A DNA stretch of 64,000 nucleotides from an uncultured Gammaproteobacteria bacterium (GTDB lineage Bacteria; Pseudomonadota; Gammaproteobacteria; UBA9214). Location of the stretch: contig CAVPAE010000006.1 in assembly GCA_963701455.1 (NCBI GenBank), positions 900,458 through 964,457 on the forward strand. The letters are read 5' to 3'. The number at the start of each line of letters is the position of its first letter. The stretch's first letter is position 1. Positions 1 to 15,886 of the stretch are shown piece by piece. The notes beneath the pieces are model-generated. The model ran no database searches, was not told the DNA's origin, and saw only the letters and a list, made by a program, of their open reading frames with translations. A program made the translations under genes and the position numbers.

Positions 1-1
1 T

Positions 2-286
2 GAGTTAGCTGCGCTGCTCGATCAGTCTGGAGAAATTCCTGAGGGAATAATCGAAGATGAACTACTTGCTGTTATTTACAGAGCGGATCCGGCTCTTGAT
101 GATGAATCCGGTCGATTAGTGCCAGGTATGAAAAACTCTGAAATATCTCTATCGCTTCATCTCACTGAACCAGGTCCAGATGGTATTTCACCGCTCGGTG
201 GAATTAGGGGGCAAGAGGCAATATTTTATTTGGTGCTAGAAGAACTTCAGAAGATTGGGTATGAGGTAGTAGATGGTCGCGTATAA
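2..286 (+). CDS. 3' end of a cassette ORF (hypothetical protein, truncated by the window edge)
   Basis: The open frame runs from the window start to TAA at 284-286. The stop lies inside the inverse core (GTATAAC) of the first attC. There is no recognisable similarity. Confidence 0.35.
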   Translation, partial: ELAALLDQSGEIPEGIIEDELLAVIYRADPALDDESGRLVPGMKNSEISLSLHLTEPGPDGISPLGGIRGQEAIFYLVLEELQKIGYEVVDGRV

Positions 287-370
287 CAAGTCGCCCAAGC
301 CGACGCGGGAAAGTATTGTGGCGCTTCGCGGAGGGTTTCTTGGCCGCGCGGCTTGGCTCAAACGTTAGGC
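281..370 (+). other. attC recombination site (cassette 1)
   Basis: Inverse core GTATAAC at 281-287. Core GTTAGGC at 364-370. Imperfect internal palindrome gcccaagccg...cggcttggct. Confidence 0.55.
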
Positions 371-375
371 ATCAT

Positions 376-780
376 ATGACTAGAGAACAAAGGGGCTTGG
401 TGCTCTACTGGATGTTCGGAGGAGTTGTTATTCTGGTTGGAGCTAGCACATTGCTTCTAGATATCAAATTTCAAGAATTAGCTTTATTGGGTGTTTCAGC
501 TTTTTATGGATTGGTTTCGCTGTTTCAGGACTTCTCATACTATCGAGGATACGGAAGCGGAAGACAGTTGCTTGGTAAATTTATTGAGTGTCATCCCAAA
601 TTAAAAGTATGGACAGTAGGCTACTGTGTGTTTGTATTACCGTACTTAATTTATAAGATTCAAGCTGATAATGAGGTTTCTGGAGTGTTGTACTTTTTGA
701 GCCTTCTACTACTGATCGGGCCATTCGTATATGTATCAGAGGTTGAGCGTTTTCATTCAATGGGCGACAAGAATGCCTAA
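376..780 (+). CDS. Cassette-encoded small integral membrane protein (134 aa, about 4 TM helices), function unknown
   Basis: ATG at 376. Hydrophobic segments include VLYWMFGGVVILVGASTLLL and VLYFLSLLLLIGPFVYV. The TAA stop lies in the attC inverse core. The ORF track starts at 316 from an upstream in-frame start. Confidence 0.55.
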   Translation: MTREQRGLVLYWMFGGVVILVGASTLLLDIKFQELALLGVSAFYGLVSLFQDFSYYRGYGSGRQLLGKFIECHPKLKVWTVGYCVFVLPYLIYKIQADNEVSGVLYFLSLLLLIGPFVYVSEVERFHSMGDKNA

Positions 781-835
781 CAAACGCCTCCAAGGCGACG
801 CGGCTCCGCCGCGCGCTTGAGGCGAGGCGTTAGGC
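775..835 (+). other. attC recombination site (cassette 2)
   Basis: GCCTAAC at 775-781 and GTTAGGC at 829-835. Dyad symmetry aacgcctc...gaggcgtt. A nearly identical copy occurs at 4739-4799. Confidence 0.7.
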
Positions 836-910
836 ATCATATGACTAGAGAACAAAGGGGCTTGGTGCTCTACTGGATGTTCGGAGGAGTTGTTATTCTG
901 GTTGGAGCTA

Positions 911-2065
911 GTGTAGGTCGTCATAAATAATGTAACATATAAGCTCTTGCGAAGTACTGAGGGCTTCCTATGCGAATTGCGGTAGAAATTGCTTTGTCTG
1001 AGGATGAAGTCGCTCACCTGAGCAAGTTGTCAAAATCACGTTCAGTATCCGTGCGGCTTGCAGAACGTTCACGAATTATTCTGCTGGCAGGGACGGGCAT
1101 GACCAATGAAGAGATTGGCGATGAACTGGGCATTACAAGACAGAAGGCGGGCCGCTGGCGAGTGCGCTACGCCGAAAGTGGAATCGACGGTATCAGCCAG
1201 GATGCATCTCGACCCGGACGAAAACCAAAGATCAGTTCACGCAAAGTCGCGAAAGTGATTAAGCTCACAACACAAACGACACCGGAAAATGCAACGCATT
1301 GGAGCCAACGTCTGATGGCAGAGAAGGTAGGCATCAGCATGTCATCAGTGGGGCGGATATGGAAAAGTCATGGTTTGAAACCGCACCGGGTGAGTACGTT
1401 CAAGCTATCAAATGATAAAGCGTTTGCTGAGAAGCTGGAGGCTATTGTCGGCCTTTATGTGTCCCCTCCAGAAAATGCCATCGTATTGAGTTGTGATGAA
1501 AAGAGTCAGATACAAGCATTGGATAGAACACAGCCTGGCTTGCCGATGAAGAAAGGCAAGGTGGCAACCATGACACATGACTATAAACGCAATGGCACCA
1601 CGACTCTGTTTGCCGCACTGAACACGTTAACAGGAGAAGTACTGGGTACCTGTACCCAGCGGCATCGACATCAGGAATGGCTGGTGTTTCTACGCAAGAT
1701 CAATCAATCCACGCCCAAGGATAAAGACATTCACATTATCTGTGATAACTATGCGACGCATAAACACCCAAAGGTGAAAAGCTGGTTGAGATATCACAAA
1801 CGTTTCCACGTCCATTTTACGCCGACCAGTGCATCGTGGCTAAACATGGTAGAACGATTCTTTCGTGAGTTGACTGATAAGCAGTTAAGACGGGGCGTGT
1901 TTAGCAGCGTGAAAGAACTTCAAGAGTCAGTGATGACATTCATTGAGAAGCACAATAAAGCCCCAGCACCTTACATCTGGACCAAGTCAGCAACCGACAT
2001 CCTGGAGAAAGTGAAGCGCGGGAGAGAAAATCTCAATAAGTTACAGACTGTTTGACGAGGTACAC
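911..2065 (+). mobile_element. IS630-family insertion sequence (copy A), flanked by TA
   Basis: Imperfect terminal inverted repeats gtgtaggtcgtc / gtgtacctcgtc. TA at 909-910 and at 2066-2067. The target gene has TA at the equivalent position (444-445). Confidence 0.7.
970..2055 (+). CDS. IS630-family DDE transposase
   Basis: 361 aa. N-terminal helix-turn-helix region. DDE region with the conserved blocks HDYKRNGTTTLFAALN, ICDNYATHK and SWLNMVERFF. Confidence 0.85.
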   Translation: MRIAVEIALSEDEVAHLSKLSKSRSVSVRLAERSRIILLAGTGMTNEEIGDELGITRQKAGRWRVRYAESGIDGISQDASRPGRKPKISSRKVAKVIKLTTQTTPENATHWSQRLMAEKVGISMSSVGRIWKSHGLKPHRVSTFKLSNDKAFAEKLEAIVGLYVSPPENAIVLSCDEKSQIQALDRTQPGLPMKKGKVATMTHDYKRNGTTTLFAALNTLTGEVLGTCTQRHRHQEWLVFLRKINQSTPKDKDIHIICDNYATHKHPKVKSWLRYHKRFHVHFTPTSASWLNMVERFFRELTDKQLRRGVFSSVKELQESVMTFIEKHNKAPAPYIWTKSATDILEKVKRGRENLNKLQTV

Positions 2066-2067
2066 TA

Positions 2068-3209
2068 GTGGTCCATGCGGTTAATTCTGTAACGCGTCCT
2101 TTGCGCGACCGACAGCGGCCAGGATATGACTGGCCGGTTTCGTCCACTTGAAGGGCTTGGCACTCTCGGCGTTGTGAGCCTTAATGAACCGTTCCAACTC
2201 GGCCTTCAGTTCTGGCACGCTGGTAAAGACACCCCGATACAAGGCACGCCGTTCCAGTTGCGCAAACCAGCCTTCCACCGCATTGAGCCAGGACGAACTG
2301 GTCGGTGTGAAATGCAGATGAATGCGCGGGCGTAAAGCCACCCACTCCTGAACTGCCTGCGTTTTGTGGGCACTCAGGTTGTCTACAATAATATGTAATT
2401 GCCGATCCGCCGGGGTGCGTCGATCGAGCAGCTTTAGGAACGACAGAAATGCCTTGCTGTTCGTGCGCTCTGCCACTTTGCCGATCACTTTTCCGGTCAA
2501 TGTGTTGAATGCCGCATACAAGCTGGTGGTGCCGTTCCTTTTATAGTCGTGGGTGCGACTACCGATTCGGCTGGGATTGAGCGGCAATCCCGGTTGGGTA
2601 CGATCCAACGCTTGAATCTGCGTCTTCTCATCCACACTGAGCACCACGGCGTTTTCCGGCGGGTTCATGTAAAGGCCGATAATATCGACGACCTTCTCGG
2701 CAAACTGTGGATCGTTGCTGATCTTGAACGTCTTCAAGCGATGCGGCCGCAGGTCTGCCGCCTTCCAGATCTGGCGAACCTGCCAGGGCGTGACATCCGC
2801 ATAGCTCGCCATCAACTCAATGCTCCAGTGCGTCGCTTCCTGGGGGACCCGTTTGGTCGTCAAAAACAAAACCTTTTCCACTGTCTTCTTGTCGATGACT
2901 GTCGGGCGTCCGCTGCGCGCCCGCTCCAGCAGGCCGTCAATCCCTTCGGCTTCAAATCGATTTCGCCAGCGATGTACCGTCTTTGCCGTGGTTCTCTGAG
3001 CGGTGGCCACTTGTGTCGGTGTCATCCCCTCACTGAGCTGAAGGATGATCTTCGCCCGCATGATCTGACCATGCGGGAGCGTGGTCGAACGGCACCACTC
3101 GTTCAGCACTGCTGCATCCTTGTCGGACAATTGAAAGGTCTTGGGTAAGCGCATGCCATAGTGTATATGCCCTGAACTATTAATAACAATATTTTACGCA
3201 TGAACCACT
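2068..3209 (-). mobile_element. IS630-family insertion sequence (copy B, a different member), inserted at the TA adjacent to copy A
   Basis: Terminal inverted repeats gtggtccatgcggttaat / gtggttcatgcgtaaaat. TA at 2066-2067 and at 3210-3211. The interrupted gene resumes at 3212. Confidence 0.7.
2081..3154 (-). CDS. IS630-family DDE transposase
   Basis: 357 aa, paralogous to 970..2055. Conserved blocks HDYKRNGTTSLYAAFN, VDNLSAHK and SWLNAVEGWF. Confidence 0.85.
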   Translation of the reverse strand: MRLPKTFQLSDKDAAVLNEWCRSTTLPHGQIMRAKIILQLSEGMTPTQVATAQRTTAKTVHRWRNRFEAEGIDGLLERARSGRPTVIDKKTVEKVLFLTTKRVPQEATHWSIELMASYADVTPWQVRQIWKAADLRPHRLKTFKISNDPQFAEKVVDIIGLYMNPPENAVVLSVDEKTQIQALDRTQPGLPLNPSRIGSRTHDYKRNGTTSLYAAFNTLTGKVIGKVAERTNSKAFLSFLKLLDRRTPADRQLHIIVDNLSAHKTQAVQEWVALRPRIHLHFTPTSSSWLNAVEGWFAQLERRALYRGVFTSVPELKAELERFIKAHNAESAKPFKWTKPASHILAAVGRAKDALQN

Positions 3210-3332
3210 AGCACATTGCTTCTAGATATCAAATTTCAAGAATTAGCTTTATTGGGTGTTTCAGCTTTTTATGGATTGGTTTCGCTGTTTCAGGGTAATC
3301 ATCCCTTTTTTAACCGGCACCAAAAGTAGACG

Positions 3333-4157
3333 TCATGCTGCTACCAGCATGTGTTTTGGTGGAAAGCCACCATTGGCCTTGTTGGGCCGTTCATGATTGT
3401 AGAACCAGAGCCACTGCGTAGCATAGTCCTGAACCTCTTCGATTGAGTCGAACTGGTACTGGCTCAGCCAGCTGTAGCGAACCGTTCGGTTGTAGCGTTC
3501 GACATAGGCATTCTGTTGTGGCTTGCCTGGCTGGATGAATTCCAGCTGGATGTCGTGCCTGCCCGCCCATACTTCCAGGTCCTGACTGATGAATTCCGGG
3601 CCGTTGTCACAACGTAGCCGGCCAGGTTTGCCGCGCCATTCGATGATCTGATCCAGCGCCCGGATCACACGTACGGCGGGCAGCGAGAAATCGGCTTCAA
3701 TGCCCAGCCCCTCACGGTTGAAGTCATCCAGCACATTGAACAACCGGAAGGTACGACCATCCGTCAGCTGATCATGCATGAAGTCCATGGACCAAGTCGC
3801 ATTCGGCGCTTCGGGCACTGTCAGTGGCACAGGTTTTTCACGCTGCATTCGTCGCTTGGGCTTGATTCGCAGGTTCAATTCCAACTCGCAGTAAATCCGA
3901 CGGATACGCTTGTGGTTCCAGGCAAAACCCTTGACGTTACGCAGATAGTCCCGGCACAGACCGAAGCCCCAGTCCTTCTGATTATGCGTCAACCGGACCA
4001 GCCAGTCGGCAATCTCGGCATTCTCATCGGACAGGATCGGTTGGTAACGATAGCAGGTCTCGCTGATGCCAAAGGCCACGCAAACCAGGCGAACACTGGC
4101 ACCGTATGTCGATGCCGCTTCCTTGGCCATCTCCTTGCGTCGAGATGGCCTCACCAC
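3333..4157 (-). CDS. IS3-family transposase OrfB (integrase catalytic core)
   Basis: 274 aa with a DDE/rve-type core ([10 protein letters not shown]..., ...CDNGPEFIS...). Confidence 0.85.
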
Positions 4158-4417
4158 TTTTTTGCCAGCGCCTCCTGGACCATCTCCGCCTTGAGACGCT
4201 CATCGGCATACATCTTCTTCAGCCGCCGGTTCTCGTCCTCCAGCTCCTTCAGGCGCTTCATCAGTGAGGCATCCATCCCTCCGAACTTGGCGCGCCACTT
4301 GTAAAATGCCGCGCTGCTCATGCCGTGTTCCCGGCACAGCGCCGGCACCGGCGTCCCGGCCTCGGCCTGCTTCAGAATCGCCAGGATCTGGCTGTCACTA
4401 TAACGTGATGTTTTCAT
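4151..4417 (-). CDS. IS3-family transposase OrfA (helix-turn-helix)
   Basis: 88 aa with a helix-turn-helix and leucine zipper. It overlaps OrfB at the AAAAAAG heptamer (minus strand, about 4152-4160), consistent with a -1 programmed frameshift. Confidence 0.8.
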
Positions 4418-4738
4418 GCAGAATCTCCTCTTAACCTATTATGAGAAAATTCTACTTCTGATGTCAGCTAGTTTTGGGGATGATTACCTCAGGACTTCTC
4501 ATACTATCGAGGATACGGAAGCGGAAGACAGTTGCTTGGTAAATTTATTGAGTGTCATCCCAAATTAAAAGTATGGACAGTAGGCTACTGTGTGTTTGTA
4601 TTACCGTACTTAATTTATAAGATTCAAGCTGATAATGAGGTTTCTGGAGTGTTGTACTTTTTGAGCCTTCTACTACTGATCGGGCTATTCGTATATGTAT
4701 CAGAGGTTGAGCGTTTTCATTCAATGGGCGACAAGAAT

Positions 4739-4799
4739 GCCTAACAAACGCCTCCAAGGCGACGCGGCTCCGCCGCGCGCTTGAGGCGAGGCGTTATGT
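4739..4799 (+). other. attC recombination site (cassette 3, duplicate of the 775-835 site; core GTTATGT)
   Basis: Identical to attC 2 apart from the last bases of the core, which derive from the downstream cassette. Confidence 0.65.
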
Positions 4800-4834
4800 T
4801 TAAAAAACAAAAATATTGGAGCCTCTAGATTTAA

Positions 4835-5488
4835 ATGGATACAAATACATGGTTAATAACTGTTTTTGGCATATATATAGCGAGTGTTGTCACGTACTCA
4901 ATAGTATATTTCCGGTTGTATGAAAAAGATCACTCTCGTTTTCTATTTAATGAAAAGGCCATGGAGAAGCAGCATAACAACCTTATCGATAAATTAAATA
5001 AAACCACTTCAGATTCCATCAAAAACAGCCCGTTACTTTTAGATGTTTTAGGTTATTTAGAAAAGCATCAGGAAATTAAAAGTATTAAAAATAAATGGAT
5101 CCTACTTGAATCTGGTAATAGCTTTAAATACAGCAGGGATGCCTTTGCACATCAAGGAGGTGCGCATGTTTTGACCACCTTAAAAATAAGAGATGAAAAA
5201 GAAGAATTGATTTTTGACCACAGATGGAACGACGTAGATGGGTTAATAAAGATAATTTCGGAACACATGTCTAGCACAGAGGCGCTAATTAAATCTTTAA
5301 GTCATAAAATAAGCACATCTGAAAACCAGTATCCTGATTTTTGGTCATATTTTGACTTTTTATATTTTAGTGTAATTAGCCAAACCACTGTTGGATATGG
5401 TGATATTCTCCCGAACTCTACTTTGATAAGGAAAGTCGTAATCACTCTAGTAATGCTAGGCCTACTTACTATTTGTTGTCATAATTAA
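4835..5488 (+). CDS. Cassette-encoded 2-TM potassium-channel-like protein (selectivity filter TTVGYGD) with a ~135-aa domain inserted between TM1 and the pore helix
   Basis: 217 aa. TM1 is residues about 6-27. The pore helix and filter are FSVISQTTVGYGDILP. The C-terminal TM is VVITLVMLGLLTICC. Confidence 0.55.
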   Translation: MDTNTWLITVFGIYIASVVTYSIVYFRLYEKDHSRFLFNEKAMEKQHNNLIDKLNKTTSDSIKNSPLLLDVLGYLEKHQEIKSIKNKWILLESGNSFKYSRDAFAHQGGAHVLTTLKIRDEKEELIFDHRWNDVDGLIKIISEHMSSTEALIKSLSHKISTSENQYPDFWSYFDFLYFSVISQTTVGYGDILPNSTLIRKVVITLVMLGLLTICCHN

Positions 5489-5507
5489 TCTGTCTTTTCA
5501 GGCGCAA

Positions 5508-5580
5508 ACATAACAAATCGTTCATGTGGGAATTTTGTTACGCTGCGCTTCACAAAATCCCCATAACTCAAACGTTAGGC
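5508..5580 (+). other. attC recombination site (cassette 4; degenerate inverse core ACATAAC, core GTTAGGC)
   Basis: Core GTTAGGC at 5574-5580 is preceded by ctcaaac as in attC 1. Internal pairing aacaaa/tttgtt. Confidence 0.45.
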
Positions 5581-5606
5581 AGCTACCATGAGCCATAAAG
5601 GGATAC

Positions 5607-5801
5607 ATGAACTTTAACGGACTACAAAAGACTTATTGGGAACAGCAAATTGCGCGTGTAGAACGTGTTCGCGAGCAGATAGCTTCCCGACTGAATATCA
5701 GTCCCGGTCGCACCATCCCCGACACAACAGATCTTGCTATAGGCAACAGGTCGCAGATTGTCTGCAGCCATAATGTTCATCGATATTTGTGGATTCTCTA
5801 A
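5607..5801 (+). CDS. Small ORF at the start of cassette 5 (64 aa). It may be an independent small protein or the frameshifted N-terminus of the downstream cyclase.
   Basis: ATG with a good ribosome-binding site (aaaggga). It overlaps the cyclase ORF by 44 nt in another frame. The cyclase frame has a stop only 6 codons before its start. Confidence 0.25.
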   Translation: MNFNGLQKTYWEQQIARVERVREQIASRLNISPGRTIPDTTDLAIGNRSQIVCSHNVHRYLWIL

Positions 5802-6360
5802 TCGTCCATCTGAGACAGAGGCAGAACAGGCAGCGTTAATGGCTGCGCTCAATCTGTTTTTTTCTGAAATGATTAAAATTGCGGAAGACTATGGCGGGAC
5901 TGTAGAAAAGAATACCGGTGATGGTTTAATGGCCTATTTTGAGGATGGAACTTCAACACCGCCAGAAAATGGGCCACACAGAGCAGTCGCGTGTGCCTTA
6001 ACCATGATGGCAGCTTCAGAGCATTTGCTGAATCCAATTCTTGCGAGATCGGACATCGACCCTATTCAGTTTCGCATATGCATTGATTCGGGCAACGTGA
6101 CAATAGCCAAGCTTGGTGCAGCTAGACGATTCAATGCGGTAGTGGCAATAGGTACAACTGCTAATGTTGCATCAAAGATGCTCGCAACTGCCAAAGCCGG
6201 ACAAATACTTCTAGGCGAGAATGTAAAAGCAAAACTGCCTTTAGAATGGCAGGTTTCTTGGGTGAAATTGCATACGTACAAGACAGGGTGGGTATTCCGT
6301 ACTAACGAACAACCCTATTCCTTTTATCTGTTCGACGCACATTGGGCAAGGTTACTGTAA
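5758..6360 (+). CDS. Class III nucleotidyl (adenylyl/guanylyl-type) cyclase catalytic domain, stand-alone (~200 aa)
   Basis: CHD (cyclase homology domain) motifs: RRLSAAIMFIDICGFS (metal-binding Asp), EKNTGDGLMAYF (second Asp), FRICIDSGNVTIAKLG, GTTANVASKM. Start is TTG at 5758 or ATG at 5773. Confidence 0.7.
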   Translation: MSAAIMFIDICGFSNRPSETEAEQAALMAALNLFFSEMIKIAEDYGGTVEKNTGDGLMAYFEDGTSTPPENGPHRAVACALTMMAASEHLLNPILARSDIDPIQFRICIDSGNVTIAKLGAARRFNAVVAIGTTANVASKMLATAKAGQILLGENVKAKLPLEWQVSWVKLHTYKTGWVFRTNEQPYSFYLFDAHWARLL

Positions 6361-7001
6361 TGGGAAATGACTCTAATGAATTGGCCTCGAAAAGCCAAAT
6401 TCCAATTCCTGCTGAGCTTGAGGGTAAAAACCTGGGGACTCCTGCCCGGCAAGGGAAAAGCGGTGATGTTAGTGGGGTTGTCGCAGAATCAGAGCAATCA
6501 GATACGAAAAAAATAGATCATGTGGATAAATATGCCAAGCATCTCCACTCGTACATTCGGGAATATATATCCGCAGCTGATAAAAAGGCTTCATTTGTGT
6601 TTGCAATTGGAGCTGCACTGTTGGTGTATCTTTATGAAAAGAATCTTGCCGTAACCTGGGTCAAGGCTGTAAATACATGGACCCTTAATGAAGGGATCAT
6701 CTTTTTAGCAATTATAGGCCTCGCTATATCGTGCCTTCTTTCAATTTTGGTTGTTGTCCCTTTTCTTAAAGGCTCAAGGAGAGGGTTTGTTTTTTGGGAC
6801 TCCATCGCTGAATTTAGCAACTCTTCTGAGTTTTCGAATGAGCTATTTAAGCTGGGCGACTCACAGCTAACGGAAGAAATACTACGGCACTCTTACGAGC
6901 TCTCGCGCGTGTGCAAACGGAAATATCTATTACTGAACTGGTCATTAAGAGTTGGTGCAGTAGGCGCAATATGTACGTTGCTTGTTCTTGTAAAAGGGTG
7001 A
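6342..7001 (+). CDS. Multi-TM membrane protein co-encoded with the cyclase; candidate membrane-disrupting effector (SLATT-like topology)
   Basis: 219 aa. Overlaps the cyclase ORF by 19 nt. N-terminal soluble/low-complexity region, then TM helices FVFAIGAALLVYLY and IIFLAIIGLAISCLLSILVVVPFL, a ~70-aa soluble segment, and a C-terminal TM VGAVGAICTLLVLV. Confidence 0.55.
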   Translation: MGKVTVMGNDSNELASKSQIPIPAELEGKNLGTPARQGKSGDVSGVVAESEQSDTKKIDHVDKYAKHLHSYIREYISAADKKASFVFAIGAALLVYLYEKNLAVTWVKAVNTWTLNEGIIFLAIIGLAISCLLSILVVVPFLKGSRRGFVFWDSIAEFSNSSEFSNELFKLGDSQLTEEILRHSYELSRVCKRKYLLLNWSLRVGAVGAICTLLVLVKG

Positions 7002-7010
7002 TAAAACGCT

Positions 7011-7065
7011 GCCTAACAAGGCGCCCCAGCCGGACGCTTCGCGCCGCTGGGCTTGGTCGTTAGGC
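7011..7065 (+). other. attC recombination site (cassette 5)
   Basis: GCCTAAC at 7011-7017 and GTTAGGC at 7059-7065. Internal dyad gcgccccagc...gctgggcttggtc. Confidence 0.7.
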
Positions 7066-7118
7066 ATAACGAGTTAAAGTGCCAGTATATTTATAGATAG
7101 AAAAGGGCTATTACACTT

Positions 7119-8003
7119 ATGAAATACGAAAACCCTAATGAATTACGCAAAGCTTGGCTGTCAAATGATAAAACATGGTCGCAGGCTCGTAAAAAAGAGT
7201 GGGGACGAATTAATGAAAAAATTAAGAGTCGCGCGTTCCAGTTTGTTAGAGCTCATGACAATATCAAAAGACTGAAAAGCTATTTTTTGACTGGCTTTCC
7301 GCCAGGCCCGGTTCCTAATGACGAACTAGATCTGCATAAATATTATTTTCGACCCCTTGCAGGGATTCCAGGAAATATCCTCTTTGAATGCTGGCTTTCA
7401 CCCGATCACTCTAAAGAATATTTCTCTGAAGTTATTGAAAGAAACCCGGACAACCTTGTAGATAGCCGTAACAGATTTAGAAAAATGGTGCGGGATTTTT
7501 TTCCTGAAAAAGAGGGGACACTATTTGACGGGCTCGAATCGGATTTCTATCTATTGTTGGGTGGGAACAGGTGTAGAAAAGATATCGAATATCCTGATAT
7601 TGATGACGATGAATATAAAAAAAGATGTCACACGCACTTTAATGAATGCCTGCCAATTATTAATCGGGTACTTTTTGCTGAGCCTGAAGACGTGAATACT
7701 AAAGATATTGCCCATTTGATGGTGGCAGAATTCATTGATAGTTATACAGGTTCATTTGAATTAGTAGTTAACCATGAATATGAAGAAGGGCTAACGTTCA
7801 AAGACTATGGTCTTGATGAAATCCGTCGTAGCCAGCTCGAACGCTGTAGTGAAATACTAAAGGCGGAAGATAAATTACACCCTCGACAGATTGAAATTGC
7901 AACGCAGCTTTTGAGCTCAATAAATGAGTTGAAATTACATGAAGAACTTGAAAAAGTGATCTCACCATATTTGATAGACACCATAAATTCGCATGATGCC
8001 TAA
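7119..8003 (+). CDS. Cassette-encoded hypothetical soluble protein (294 aa)
   Basis: Clean ORF with a ribosome-binding site. Its TAA stop lies inside the next attC inverse core. No recognisable motifs. Confidence 0.55.
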   Translation: MKYENPNELRKAWLSNDKTWSQARKKEWGRINEKIKSRAFQFVRAHDNIKRLKSYFLTGFPPGPVPNDELDLHKYYFRPLAGIPGNILFECWLSPDHSKEYFSEVIERNPDNLVDSRNRFRKMVRDFFPEKEGTLFDGLESDFYLLLGGNRCRKDIEYPDIDDDEYKKRCHTHFNECLPIINRVLFAEPEDVNTKDIAHLMVAEFIDSYTGSFELVVNHEYEEGLTFKDYGLDEIRRSQLERCSEILKAEDKLHPRQIEIATQLLSSINELKLHEELEKVISPYLIDTINSHDA

Positions 8004-8060
8004 CAAGGCAAATTCAGCTGACGCGCCAAAGGCGCGCGCGGCTGATTTGCGGCGTTAGAG
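7998..8060 (+). other. attC recombination site (cassette 6; core GTTAGAG)
   Basis: GCCTAAC at 7998-8004. Dyad gctgacgcgcc...ggcgcgcgcggctga. Confidence 0.6.
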
Positions 8061-8112
8061 GGCTGAATATAACGTCTTGACGTTATGGCGACATAGTGCT
8101 ATATATTACCCC

Positions 8113-8346
8113 ATGAGCAGTGATCCCAAACGAGCAACCGTATATTTTGATCCAGCGCTTCACCGCGCACTCCGGGTCAAAGCAGCAGAGACTGAGCGAT
8201 CCATATCGGACCTGGTCAATGAGGCTGTGCAATTAAGCCTTGTTGAGGATGCCGAGGACCTTGCTGCTTTCGAAGACAGGGTGAACGAGCCCAGCTTGCC
8301 GTATGAAGATGTCGTTAAAGATCTGAAACGACGTGGAAAAATATAA
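8113..8346 (+). CDS. Type II antitoxin, ribbon-helix-helix (RelB/ParD-like)
   Basis: RATVYFDPALHRALRVKAAETERSISDLVNEAV is an RHH antitoxin signature. It overlaps the downstream toxin gene by 14 nt. Confidence 0.7.
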   Translation: MSSDPKRATVYFDPALHRALRVKAAETERSISDLVNEAVQLSLVEDAEDLAAFEDRVNEPSLPYEDVVKDLKRRGKI

Positions 8347-8602
8347 GGTATCGATTAAGCGTTCTGCGGTGAAAGAAATTGAAGCCATACCGCAAAAGAA
8401 AGAACGGCAACGCATAATCCGTCGCATTGGCCAACTGGCTAATGATCCACGCCCCCCAGGTTCAAAGAAGCTATCCGGTCATGATAAATATCGGATACGC
8501 CAAGGTTCTTATCGTATTGTATACAGCATCGAAGGTAATGAGCTTGTCGTCGTTGTAGTGAAGGTGGGTCATCGGAAGGATGTTTACCGTGGCGCCCTCT
8601 AA
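8333..8602 (+). CDS. Type II toxin, RelE/ParE family
   Basis: 89 aa. KLSGHDKYRIRQGSYRIVYSIEGNELVVVVVKVGHRKDVY is typical of the RelE/ParE fold. GTG start. Confidence 0.8.
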   Translation: MEKYKVSIKRSAVKEIEAIPQKKERQRIIRRIGQLANDPRPPGSKKLSGHDKYRIRQGSYRIVYSIEGNELVVVVVKVGHRKDVYRGAL

Positions 8603-8656
8603 CAACTCAGCCCAGTCCGACGCGCTGACGCGCGCTGCTGGCTTCAGCCGTTAGGT
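8597..8656 (+). other. attC recombination site (cassette 7; core GTTAGGT)
   Basis: Inverse core CTCTAAC overlaps the relE stop. Dyad cagcccagtccgacgcg...cgcgctgctggcttcag. Confidence 0.6.
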
Positions 8657-8660
8657 GCTT

Positions 8661-8984
8661 ATGAAAATCACCAGCTTACTTGCTTCAATTATTCTGGGAT
8701 TAACCCTGGCTGGTTGCTCGGGCTCAAGCGACATTACGAATGCAGCAGAAGTACAAGAAGAACTTGATGACTTGTTACAGGTTGGAGCTTCAAAAGAGTA
8801 TATTGAAGCCACGCTTGTGCGTCTGAATATTGGCCATTCGTTTGATAAGTATGCTTCACGATATCAAGGCATTATCAGGAATGCCGGCGGTCCGATGGAT
8901 CATGCGGTAGTGGTATATGTATACATGGATGAAAACGACAAGCTCACAAGGGTGGAAACCCATGATTCATATACAGGGCCATAA
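8661..8984 (+). CDS. Cassette-encoded small lipoprotein (signal peptide plus LAGC lipobox)
   Basis: MKITSLLASIILGLTLAGCSG. A possible degenerate last attC (ACACAAC...GTTAGGA) lies at about 8993-9068. Confidence 0.5.
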   Translation: MKITSLLASIILGLTLAGCSGSSDITNAAEVQEELDDLLQVGASKEYIEATLVRLNIGHSFDKYASRYQGIIRNAGGPMDHAVVVYVYMDENDKLTRVETHDSYTGP

Positions 8985-9290
8985 TGTTGATTACACAACC
9001 TGCGTTTTCCAGGGCTTGCTTTCACTCGGCCGATTATGTGTGCGTAAGATGAAAAATACCGGTTAGGAACTTGACTCGAAAAATTAGTTGAATCGTTTAA
9101 GGAGCACAGTTAATTGTGCCCGGACTGTTCACTCCAATCGATGCCCGTCCCTCGCGCAATTGAGTTCAATCGCTAGACCTCGTTAAAAATACTAATTGTG
9201 TCAGTACGAATTAATTTCTAGTATTGGCGATTATTCAGGCTGACACATTTTATAAACGTTCACACTATTTCATCCAGAAGGGAAATAAAC

Positions 9291-9749
9291 ATGGGAATGA
9301 TTAACGAGTTCAAGCAATTTGCAATGCGCGGCAACGTGGTCGATATGGCCGTGGGTATCATTATCGGCGGTGCGTTTGGAACGATCGTCAAAAGCCTGGT
9401 TTCGGATGTCATGATGCCGCCGCTTGGATTGTTGCTGGGTGGTGTGGACTTTTCCGATCTGTTTATCACCCTGAAGGAAGGCGCCACTGCCGGGCCGTAT
9501 GCGACCCTGGCGGCGGCGCAGGCGGCGGGCGCGGTGACTATTGGCTACGGCGTGTTTATGAACGCCGTGATCAGTTTCCTGATTGTTGCATTCGCTGTTT
9601 TCCTGCTCATCAAGGGTATTAACAAGCTGCAGAGCGAAAAGGAAGAACCGGCCGAGCCGACCACGAAGGATTGTCCGAAATGCTTTACTGCCATTCCGAT
9701 TAAGGCGACGCGTTGTCCGAACTGCACTTCGGAAATCGGGTCTGCATAA
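9291..9749 (+). CDS. mscL: Large-conductance mechanosensitive channel MscL with a C-terminal CxxC...CxxC extension
   Basis: [30 protein letters not shown] is the MscL N-terminus. GC rises to core-genome level here. Confidence 0.85.
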
Positions 9750-9779
9750 CGGCGGGGTGAATTTAAGGAGAGTGTGAAC

Positions 9780-9925
9780 AAGTCTCGAATCGTCATTCCG
9801 GCGCATGCCGGACAAAAGCGCAAGGCGCGTTGAACGCCCGGAGGGTGGGCGAAGCGAGTCATCCAGGTAAATCGACAAGCTGGACCCCGGCCTTCGCCGG
9901 GGTGACGACTTATTCAGAGTTACCT
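9780..9925. repeat. Dispersed palindromic repeat element (cgtcattccggcg...ctggaccccggccttcgccggggtgacga family)
   Basis: Related copies at 35275-35375 and 62925-62995. Confidence 0.5.
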
Positions 9926-10065
9926 TAAGAAGACAGGGCGTCAGTGCACATGTATTTCTGATCTTCGGGCAAATCGTGCCCTGACACTCTTTCCCCCGGT
10001 CCGCTCCGGGTCAGCCCATTGGATGCAGCGCGGGGTGGCGTATACTGGGCTGAAAGACAGGGAAA

Positions 10066-14449: not shown

Positions 14450-15886
14450 GTGAAGATGGTTTTACAGCGCAACCTCAGCGACAGGCTGTTCACCCCCGTC
14501 GATGCCGCTTCACTGGCGGTGTTTCGCATCGGCTTCGGCTGCATCATGCTGGTCGAGATGTTGCGCTATTTCCACTTCGACTGGATCCGGCGCTACTACG
14601 TCACCCCGGAGTTTCACTTCAGCTACTACGGTTTCGACTGGGTGCAACCCCTGGGCGAAACCGGCATGGTCCTGCTTTTCGCGGGGCTTGCGCTGCTGGC
14701 GTTTTTCATCGCCATCGGCTATCTCTACCGCTTCAGCATTATCGCTTTTACGCTGGGCTTTACCTGGGTCTTTCTGCTTGACCAGACCCAGTACCTGAAT
14801 CACTTCTATCTCGTCATCCTGCTCGGGATTTTGTTGAGCGTGCTGCCGGCGCAGCGCGCCTTCTCCGTCGATGCCCGGCTGCAGCGCAGGCAGGGCACGG
14901 CGGAGGTGCCCGCGTGGGCGGTCTGGGTGCTGCGGGCCCAGTTCGAGGTGATGTATCTGTACGCGGGTATCGTCAAGCTGAATCCGGACTGGCTGCGCCT
15001 CGAACCCATGGCGATCTGGATGACACGCGGAGCCGAACTGCCGTTGATCGGCCCGTTGATGACGGAGCCGCTGGCCGTGGCCGCGGCCAGCTATGGCGTG
15101 ATTGTCCTGCACCTGGTCGGCGCGCCCCTGCTGTTGTGGCGGCGTACCCGGCTCGGTGTGTTTCTCATCTACGCGGCCTTTCATACCACCAACCACTTCA
15201 GCTTCAACATCGGTATCTTTCCCTGGCTCACGCTGTTCGGCACCCTGATCTTTTTCGAGCCTGACTGGCCGCGGCGTGTCTGGCGGGTGCTGACCAAGCG
15301 CGCGGCAGTGGCAACGCAGGCGGATGCCGGTGATGGCGGGAACGGTGTTGCGGCGGCAACGCCGGCTGTGGCGATGGGCAGGCGCCTGGTCATCGGCCTG
15401 CTGGCCGCATGGTTTGCCTTCCAGGTGCTGGTGCCGCTGCGGCATCTGCTGTACCCGGGCAATGTCAGCTGGACGGAGGAGGGACACCGTTTCGCCTGGC
15501 AAATGATGTTGCGCGAAAAGGGAGGCACCGCGAAATTCAGCGTGACCGACCCGGCAAGCGGCCGCGTCTGGCATATCAACCTGCCGGATTACCTGACCCC
15601 GCGCCAGGCCCGGAAAATGGCGACGCGCCCCGACATGCTGCTGCAGTTTGCCCACCACCTGCAACGGGTCTGGGAACGGGAAAAGAACCTGCCGGGCGTC
15701 GAGGTGCGCGTGACGACCGCCATCTCGCTGAACGGTCGCGCGCCGGTGCTGCTGCTGGACCCGGCAAGGGACCTGGCCGCCGTGCCGCGCGACCTGCGTG
15801 CTGCGGACTGGATCCTGCCGCTGACCGAGCCGCTGCCTGCGATTACCTTCAGGCGCCTGTTTCAAGACACAATCGCGGTCAGGTGA
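14450..15886 (+). CDS. HTTM domain (vitamin-K-carboxylase-like) integral membrane protein
   Basis: LAVFRIGFGCIMLVE...DQTQYLNHFYL. Multi-TM N-terminal half. Confidence 0.6.
   Translation: MKMVLQRNLSDRLFTPVDAASLAVFRIGFGCIMLVEMLRYFHFDWIRRYYVTPEFHFSYYGFDWVQPLGETGMVLLFAGLALLAFFIAIGYLYRFSIIAFTLGFTWVFLLDQTQYLNHFYLVILLGILLSVLPAQRAFSVDARLQRRQGTAEVPAWAVWVLRAQFEVMYLYAGIVKLNPDWLRLEPMAIWMTRGAELPLIGPLMTEPLAVAAASYGVIVLHLVGAPLLLWRRTRLGVFLIYAAFHTTNHFSFNIGIFPWLTLFGTLIFFEPDWPRRVWRVLTKRAAVATQADAGDGGNGVAAATPAVAMGRRLVIGLLAAWFAFQVLVPLRHLLYPGNVSWTEEGHRFAWQMMLREKGGTAKFSVTDPASGRVWHINLPDYLTPRQARKMATRPDMLLQFAHHLQRVWEREKNLPGVEVRVTTAISLNGRAPVLLLDPARDLAAVPRDLRAADWILPLTEPLPAITFRRLFQDTIAVR

Follow-up and report, generated by a model that had tools for sequence, protein, structure and literature searches.

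The question raised by the left end of this stretch, a 64,000-nucleotide piece of contig CAVPAE010000006.1 from an uncultured gammaproteobacterium (referred to here, at its full length, as the window), is whether its first 9 kb belong to an integron, in which gene cassettes are strung together between attC recombination sites, and, if so, where the integrase that moves them is to be sought. We are highly confident that positions 1 to ~9250 come from a chromosomal array of gene cassettes of the integron type, of which they form the distal part, in a host of ~62% GC. The reading of this region as an array of co-oriented cassettes that ends just upstream of mscL is supported by the structure of its attC sites, their covariation, model searches from which sites had been left out and cross-recognition of a bona fide class 1 attC, together with a circular-permutation footprint and a recurring cassette whose homology stops at the predicted boundaries. 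At least eight co-oriented cassettes are visible, their layout being one or two open reading frames (ORFs) followed by an attC. The original prediction, which was made from the sequence of this window, had set a GC of ~40% in the array against ~65% in the core genome; the cassettes are indeed low in GC, but the values are not flat, with 34-50% in the cassette segments, 48-55% in three insertion sequences and 62% over 10-64 kb of the window. Its statement that all ORFs share one orientation likewise holds for the cassette ORFs, which all lie on the + strand, but not for the transposase genes of two of the insertion elements, which lie on the - strand.

In integrons, the bottom strand of attC folds into an imperfect hairpin made up of an R box, an unpaired central spacer and an L box, with bulged bases on one arm, and it is this hairpin that the tyrosine recombinase IntI recognises and cuts at G|TT. 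Cassettes are excised as circles and are normally re-inserted at attI, beside intI. All seven sites that had been predicted (281-370, 775-835, 4739-4799, 5508-5580, 7011-7065, 7998-8060 and 8597-8656) were confirmed by reading the sequence. They are found on the + strand only, are confined to 281-8656 and occur nowhere else in the 64 kb; each one lies just 3′ of a + strand ORF, is 55-90 nt long, begins with xxxTAAC and ends with GTTAxxx, in agreement with the RYYYAAC/GTTRRRY form of attC termini. The stop codons that had been placed inside the inverse cores were found there at 5 of the 7 sites, the exceptions being those that begin at 5508 and 7011. The heptamer GCCTAAC/GTTAGGC occurs eight times in the 64 kb, a number that is unremarkable in itself, as it was reached in 16 of 100 shuffles; what stands out is the clustering, since every occurrence falls within 364-8004.

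Under DNA folding, the bottom strands of the seven sites gave z-scores between -1.8 and -4.5. The strongest fold was that of attC1 (775-835, 61 nt; z -4.5, with none of 200 shuffles folding as well); values were also obtained for attC5 (7998-8060, 63 nt; z -3.25), attC3 (5508-5580, 73 nt and AT-rich; z -2.4), attC6 (8597-8656, 60 nt, the last intact attC; z -2.4) and attC0 (281-370, 90 nt, R″ GTATAAC and R′ GTTAGGC; z -2.2). The site attC2 (4739-4799, 61 nt) is identical to attC1 except for its last bases (R′ GTTATGT), which are part of cassette 3, and attC4 (7011-7065, 55 nt) has homologous attC sites in two other contexts that are described below. The consensus obtained with RNAalifold shows the succession of R box, unpaired spacer and L box, with 6 pairs in the R box, 5-7 nt of spacer on either side and 13-15 inner pairs. 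Over the six distinct sites this consensus pairs 89.7% of cells, compared with 24-40% in slid controls, and changes on both sides were observed in 8 of the 13 inner-stem pairs, a covariation score that was reached by none of 500 shuffles. Mean column identity among the sites was 55%, so that structure is kept while sequence is not. Within the stem, columns 20 and 24 (the A of the invariant GACGC) are unpaired on the R″/L″ arm of the consensus, with some variation among the individual minimum-energy folds, and these bases may correspond to the experimentally defined extrahelical bases of attC.

For covariance-model searches we used a model trained on four of the window sites (R1), which was run unfiltered over both strands of the window, and a broader model (R2). 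R1 gave 71.8 bits for its training site attC1, 62.9 bits for attC2, 65.9 bits for attC4, 67.7 bits for attC5 and 69.5 bits for attC6. The two held-out sites were ranked above all background, attC0 (matched at 286-365) with 22.7 bits and an E value of 1.3e-3, and attC3 with 15.9 bits and an E value of 0.08, the best background match in the window being 12.6 bits; with R2, attC0 reached 65.3 bits. Beyond the window, R1 recognised the full length of the aadA1 attC in the class 1 integron intI1-dfrA1-aadA1-qacEdelta1 of a Salmonella plasmid (46.7 bits, E 8e-11), on the + strand and with intI1 upstream on the - strand, an orientation that matches that of the array, and R2 detected the dfrA1 attC, which was absent from its training, at 5110-5204 of the class 1 locus L011, precisely in the gap that separates dfrA1 from aadA1. 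As a background control, R1 returned only two weak matches over 969 kb of unrelated ligA loci. The sites are also polar, since R1 scores 66-72 bits on the + strand and 15-21 bits on the - strand.

The cassette boundaries provide a test of a different kind. Because the integrase crosses over at G|TT, the final six bases of an arrayed attC are in fact the start of the next cassette, and cassette ends were accordingly placed at the G|TT point. In each of cassettes 1-6, the first 6 nt complement the cassette's own R″ with 0 mismatches, including two non-consensus cases, TTATGT/ACATAAC in cassette 3 and TTAGAG/CTCTAAC in cassette 6, whereas the R″ and R′ of one and the same site mismatch at 5 of the 7 sites. 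Cassette 7 fails this test because it has no R″.

It might be argued that the sites are nothing more than palindromes of another origin, such as repetitive extragenic palindromic (REP) or bacterial interspersed mosaic element (BIME)-like repeats, intrinsic terminators or the ends of miniature inverted-repeat transposable elements (MITEs), which flank genes by chance. The sites are, after all, hairpins rich in GC that lie where genes end, a terminator scan catches portions of two of them, and an Rfam search of the window at gathering thresholds gave no matches, though no attC family appears among the Rfam matches. We nevertheless consider this origin barely credible, given the RYYYAAC…GTTRRRY termini, the full-length cross-match to the aadA1 attC, the strand asymmetry and the lack of copies in the other 55 kb of the host chromosome; moreover, neither a circular-permutation footprint for each cassette nor homology that is bounded by cassette ends is expected of REPs or terminators. 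The consensus scan for promoters and terminators was otherwise uninformative, with fewer promoter-like sites than in shuffles.

Homology bounded by cassette ends is seen in cassette 4 (5575..7059, + strand, 1485 bp), which carries a two-gene anti-phage system with a pyrimidine cyclase (Pycsar), consisting of pycC (5607-6360) and pycTM (6360-7001). PycC is matched by the PADLOC PycC model (2.5e-19) and by Pfam Guanylate_cyc (2e-13), and PycTM by PADLOC PycTM (3.1e-26) and Pfam PycTM (2.9e-11), the start of pycTM overlapping the pycC stop (TAATG). Cyclase homologues with 87% amino-acid identity are present in two contigs, one from JGI (L012) and one from Logan (L013), and the nucleotide identity to both, 81%, is limited to 5574-7066 of the window: it begins at the G in the core of the attC that precedes the cassette and continues through the R′ of cassette 4's own attC, whose counterparts there (L013 1795-1849 and L012 11403-11457) score 42.8 bits. 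The gene downstream of the Pycsar cassette in L012 and L013 is unrelated to cassette 5, and in L012 the upstream neighbours are the conjugation genes TraI_2, TraG and DtrJ. That the homology in these other contexts ends at the cassette ends is direct evidence that cassette 4 moves as a separate unit, bounded as we predicted. In L012 (4810-11457), the Pycsar cassette has its own attC and none upstream, with a core-like heptamer, GTTTGGC, at the junction; this could reflect insertion at a secondary site or an attI-like site on a conjugative element.

In the window, a 1-nt insertion near 5741, placed by alignment to L013, divides pycC into the frames 5607-5801 and 5758-6360, while its homologues are all ~250 aa long. 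Joining the two frames raised the PADLOC PycC score from 62.9 to 79.6 bits (5.6e-23, profile positions 9-200 of 226). A Logan short-read contig (ERR12037370) that encodes a protein identical to the 294-aa product of cassette 5 carries an intact 250-aa pycC, with the pycC start one base nearer to pycTM than in the window, so the frameshift is either an assembly error or a strain polymorphism. If the system is functional, PycC would act as a cyclase, producing a cyclic mononucleotide when phage infects, PycTM would be the membrane effector and the outcome would be abortive infection. Related cyclases with transmembrane effectors make cCMP, cUMP or cGMP, the last of these in the related Pucsar branch, and because all three are possible, the product of PycC in this system cannot be assigned.

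The array also preserves a record of its past changes. Cassette 1 (365..829, + strand, 465 bp; first 6 nt TTAGGC) encodes a 134-aa multi-pass membrane protein (376-780) with no match in Pfam, PADLOC, NCBIfam or PHROG. It is followed by cassette 2 (830..4793, + strand), a tandem duplicate in the pieces 830-910, 3209-3294 and 4489-4793: without the insertion sequences, and with each target duplication reduced to a single copy, it amounts to 465 bp and differs from cassette 1 at a single internal base (722 C>T). The site that had been predicted as a near-duplicate is thus real, but it belongs to a complete second copy of cassette 1 that is broken by three insertion sequences at 911-4488. The original prediction had missed these elements and the completeness of the second copy, and it had also overlooked the Pycsar and toxin-antitoxin content of the array.

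The DNA at 911-4488 is not cassette DNA and is made up of two IS630-family elements and one IS3-family element. Element A (911..2065, + strand, 1155 bp) encodes a transposase at 970-2055 (NCBIfam transpos_IS630, 282.5 bits; Pfam DDE_3), has the inverted ends GTGTAGGTCGTCA / GTGTACCTCGTCA and is flanked by TA at 909-910 and 2066-2067, within CTAG. Element B (2068..3208, - strand, 1141 bp) encodes a transposase at 2081-3154 with Pfam DDE_3 and helix-turn-helix (HTH) domains, has the inverted ends GTGGTCCATGCG / GTGGTTCATGCG and is flanked by TA at 2066-2067 and 3209-3210. Both have the DDE_3 domain and the TA within CTAG at all three junctions that mark the IS630 family. A and B are different members of that family, placed back to back (908-911, 2065-2068 and 3208-3211) in such a way that three TA dinucleotides are left; element B used the CTAG target that the right end of element A regenerated. 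The IS3-family element (3295..4488, - strand, 1194 bp; transpos_IS3, 205.6 bits) shows the features of its family, namely an orfA with HTH_Tnp_1 (4151-4417) and an orfB with rve (3333-4157) in overlapping frames, inverted ends (GTAATCATCCC) and a short target duplication, TCAGG, at 3290-3294 and 4489-4493. None of the three elements has a second copy in the window, and a search of plasmids with them gave distant matches only, in Rhizobium and Thiothrix, which are uninformative on the host.

Cassette 1 has been duplicated in tandem, and its second copy was later struck by the three insertion sequences. Lying inside cassette 2, the insertion sequences should interrupt transcriptional read-through into cassettes 3-7. 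The ATG of cassette 1 lies 5 nt past the attC, leaving no room for a promoter of its own, and cassettes 1 and 7, which start within a few bases of the preceding attC, would rely on upstream transcription. Catalysis by IntI, transcription from the Pc promoter, polarity of the insertion sequences and anti-phage activity are all inferred for this array.

At its right end, the array gives way to chromosomal DNA. Cassette 7 is a remnant (8651..9251, + strand) with a predicted lipoprotein (8661-8984, lipobox LAGC), for which Pfam, PADLOC, NCBIfam and PHROG gave no family match, followed by ~270 bp of AT-rich DNA. No attC was found in it by folding, by R1 or by R2, and the expected R″, ACCTAAC, was not found downstream even when one mismatch was allowed. 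A possible degenerate eighth site had been suggested at ~8990-9070; this segment has no fold (z +1.56) and is scored by neither model, and we do not retain it. The array has a ragged distal end here. From 9252 onward, the sequence is again homologous to that of L008, a close relative; mscL (9291..9749, + strand; Pfam MscL 2.7e-43), which begins 39 bp further on, is a flanking chromosomal gene outside the array with 90% nucleotide identity to the L008 mscL. The claim that the array stops just upstream of mscL is thus borne out. By synteny with relatives, the array probably sits between ligA and mscL.

At its left end, the array runs past the edge of the window, so that more of it exists there. 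The first visible one, cassette 0, is partial (1..364, + strand, its start lying beyond the window) and comprises the C-terminal 94 codons of an ORF, read in frame at 2-286, followed by attC0. This ORF had no match in Pfam, PADLOC, NCBIfam or PHROG. The partial protein found nothing among metagenome contigs, and among genome contigs only an irrelevant 25-residue match in a deltaproteobacterial metagenome-assembled genome (L001) without integron features. Look-ups of identical proteins gave no record for the 134-aa and 154-aa readings of cassette 1, for the 217-aa protein of cassette 3 or for MscL; the 294-aa protein of cassette 5 is on record in NCBI/ENA.

Several points weigh against the interpretation of the region as an integron array. 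No intI, attI or Pc promoter was seen in the window, attI and Pc being expected to the left of position 1, and no IntI-like tyrosine recombinase was found in the 64 kb by a motif scan or, by tblastn with IntI1, in the window or the syntenic loci of relatives. The last cassette is without an attC, and the scores of the two held-out attC sites are no more than moderate (E 1e-3 and 0.08). All model tests relied on our own models, built from window sites plus two external ones. Finally, the frameshift in pycC may leave the Pycsar system of this assembly inactive.

The missing integrase leads to the second part of our question. The original prediction held that intI and attI must lie beyond position 1. 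The orientation of the array does place them to the left, but "must" is too strong, since a complete integron and an attC cluster without an integrase (CALIN) are about equally likely. If the integron is complete, intI with attI and Pc would be found to the left of position 1, in the space from ligA to the first cassette, and what the window holds would be the distal end of an active array. The intact and high-scoring attC sites, the perfect G|TT footprints and the continuation of the array off the left edge agree with this, as does the orientation, which is that of the intI1 control locus, and the tandem cassette duplicate with one single-nucleotide difference suggests recent integrase activity. 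What tells against it, besides a window without intI, is the situation in relatives: in L002-L006, ~490 bp separate ligA from the start of a cassette-like block, and neither an integrase nor a remnant of one is present, and in a scan of metagenomes with the L008 ligA, the 80 further loci obtained (969 kb) contained no intI near ligA and no attC arrays. On balance we give the complete integron a little less than an even chance.

We regard it as an even matter whether the array is instead a CALIN, in which the integrase platform was lost or was never there and the cassettes are kept passively or are mobilised in trans by an integrase encoded elsewhere. Over the visible 9 kb and on the downstream side, the array corresponds to the definition of a CALIN (at least 2 attC sites and no intI within ~4 kb). 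Relatives have decayed attC sites directly after ligA without intI (L002 4406-4466, 22.8 and 19.3 bits), the distal cassette of the window has lost its attC, and the three insertion sequences and the pycC frameshift fit relaxed selection. Against a CALIN stand the six perfect cassette footprints and attC sites that, unlike those of L002, are undecayed; furthermore, the cassette content shares nothing with L002, so that there has been turnover since the two diverged, for which an integrase is needed somewhere.

The relatives also bear on whether the array is resident at all. In L008, ligA is followed by 94 bp (2395-2489) and then mscL, with no cassettes, so that the site is empty; in L002-L006, ligA is directly followed by a low-GC block of small ORFs (L002 3580-6130) that holds decayed attC and is without an integrase, and in L007 the interval downstream of ligA (1476-4000) contains a fragment of mscL. 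This locus is empty in L008 and differs in both L002 and L007; neither this nor the spread of the attC sites, from 55 to 90 nt with 55% column identity, fits a sedentary chromosomal integron. A classical large sedentary integron is thus disfavoured by the heterogeneous attC sites, the low-GC cassettes and the non-conserved locus. The same features (attC sites heterogeneous in length and sequence, cassette GC far below that of the host and a locus that is empty in the closest relative), along with the copy of the Pycsar cassette that adjoins conjugation genes in L012, could also be read as a mobile integron, carried by a transposon, plasmid or integrative element that inserted between ligA and mscL. 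We think this unlikely, because the visible part has no transposition or conjugation genes except for the three insertion sequences inside one cassette, none of the visible cassettes is a resistance cassette, and the attC remnants at the same locus in L002-L006 suggest long residence. A chromosomal cassette array, whether or not accompanied by its own integrase, thus remains the reading that we follow below.

The remaining cassettes have diverse contents. The original prediction had singled out a membrane protein, a 294-aa protein and a lipoprotein as having no recognisable function; no family match was obtained for the first and the third and no Pfam match for the family of the second, but the cargo of other cassettes, namely Pycsar, a toxin-antitoxin pair and a K+-channel pore, is recognisable. 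Cassette 3 (4794..5574, + strand, 781 bp) encodes a 217-aa membrane protein (4835-5488) with the K+-channel pore motif TVGYGD. It matches Pfam Ion_trans_2 (1.2e-12) over residues 167-213 only, and K+ channels in PDB match the pore alone. Its layout is unusual: an N-terminal transmembrane helix is followed by ~130 aa that are soluble, then by the K+-channel pore helix, which carries the TVGYGD filter, and lastly by another transmembrane helix.

Cassette 5 (7060..8054, + strand, 995 bp) encodes the 294-aa protein (7119-8003), which belongs to a small uncharacterised all-alpha family with 4 close homologues and 69 distant representatives among 1.84 billion sequences; in 33 members of this family, there was no Pfam match in any. 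The AF2 model of the protein is all-alpha with a pLDDT of 91.7, and it has no significant structural neighbour in PDB or BFVD. One homologue (L014 239-1099) does not belong to a cassette, and its translation is coupled to that of a gene upstream. We also considered cassette 5 as a conserved third Pycsar gene, since homologous loci have a 291-aa gene 39 nt after pycTM; however, the protein encoded there is unrelated and an attC intervenes there too, and we rejected this idea.

Cassette 6 (8055..8650, + strand, 596 bp) carries a type II toxin-antitoxin system, with a ribbon-helix-helix (RHH) antitoxin at 8113-8346 and a ParE/RelE-fold toxin at 8333-8602, the two genes overlapping by 14 nt. The antitoxin matches Pfam Antitox_RHH with 30.4 bits against a cut-off of 27.2 (4.2e-7) and is RelB-like in NCBIfam, and the toxin matches Pfam ParE_toxin with 47 bits against a cut-off of 23 (4.1e-12) and NCBIfam RelE_StbE. 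Such a pair would stabilise the array.

Arrays of this type have been defined before: IntegronFinder, attributed to Cury (2016) and Neron (2022), reportedly defines both chromosomal integron cassette arrays and CALINs. Its definitions are also quoted in a recent survey (10.1101/2024.07.02.601686). Like these, the array in the window has co-oriented cassettes that end in attC sites with RYYYAAC/GTTRRRY termini and contain mostly short, largely promoterless ORFs without assigned function, a toxin-antitoxin cassette, a tandem cassette duplication and a ragged distal end. In contrast, its cassettes lie 12-28 GC points below the host and its locus is not conserved among close relatives, and, unlike in the large arrays of Vibrio or Xanthomonas, its attC sites are heterogeneous rather than copies of one species-specific repeat. 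Four of the sites, of 55-63 nt, fall in a length class similar to that of the aadA1/aadA2-type attC of class 1 integrons (the 59-base element), with which the window sites share the motifs AAC-AA...CAAGCCGACGC...GCGCGGCTT...CGTTAG and the consensus structure, including the bulged A inside GACGC. The window sites differ from that type in that they flank non-resistance cassettes in an environmental chromosome, and the 90- and 73-nt sites have longer terminal loops.

A Pycsar system with a transmembrane effector was reportedly described by Tal and colleagues in 2021. Descriptions of such systems are given in PMC11224242 and 10.64898/2026.08.12.744502. The system in the window agrees with them in having a standalone cyclase of ~250 aa, followed by a membrane effector of the PycTM family with a TAATG stop/start overlap, both of which match PADLOC models, but it differs in forming an integron cassette that has an attC of its own, and in the interruption of pycC in the assembly. 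Of the 783 defence systems that Darracq et al. (10.1101/2024.07.02.601686) report from integron cassettes, 73% come from Vibrio, and the commonest are PfiAT, Shedu, AbiV and PD-T7-4; there is no mention of Pycsar in the main text or in one supplement of that study. As in the defence cassettes of Darracq et al. and of Kieffer et al. (10.1101/2024.07.02.601719), a compact system of at most 2 genes occupies one cassette and a ParE-type toxin-antitoxin cassette shares the array; what differs is that an uncultured high-GC gammaproteobacterium serves as host and that Pycsar, here frameshifted in pycC, is the system.

Cassette arrays, toxin-antitoxin cassettes, cassette duplication, hits by insertion sequences and defence systems in cassettes are all already described, and the array is therefore an ordinary kind of element that leaves the understanding of integrons unchanged. 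What it adds is a well-delimited cassette array from an uncultured high-GC gammaproteobacterium, and a two-gene Pycsar system packaged as a mobile cassette (frameshifted in pycC in this assembly) that is found elsewhere beside conjugation genes. This agrees with the recent view that anti-phage systems are stocked in integrons, and takes it beyond Vibrio. For defence screens, the array supplies, in addition, small and sharply bounded candidates, namely cassette 5, the K+-pore protein and the duplicated membrane protein. A bolder proposal would make the array an anti-phage biobank outside Vibrio, in which the 294-aa protein, the K+-pore protein with its 130-aa insert and the duplicated 134-aa protein are new compact defence or abortive-infection modules and the ligA-mscL interval is a lineage-specific landing site served by an integrase in trans; taken as a whole, we hold this to be unlikely.

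Some observations on the surrounding chromosome may be added. The GGDEF-EAL protein of the host reaches no more than 89% identity with proteins from metagenome contigs, and the interval from downstream of ligA to the GGDEF-EAL gene is hypervariable among relatives of 84-89% identity. Between mscL and the GGDEF-EAL gene, ~260 bp of the window (9764-10027) are without a counterpart in relatives and hold GC-rich palindromes, for example ccggcgcatgccgg and ccccggccttcgccgggg; at this place L008 has ~2.5 kb of genes (yjdM, a flavin reductase and cation efflux). Further along, the ORF at 14450-15886 lies at about the position of a gene that in relatives encodes an HTTM / vitamin-K-dependent gamma-carboxylase lumenal domain (L002 14332-15738), and by position alone it may be that gene.

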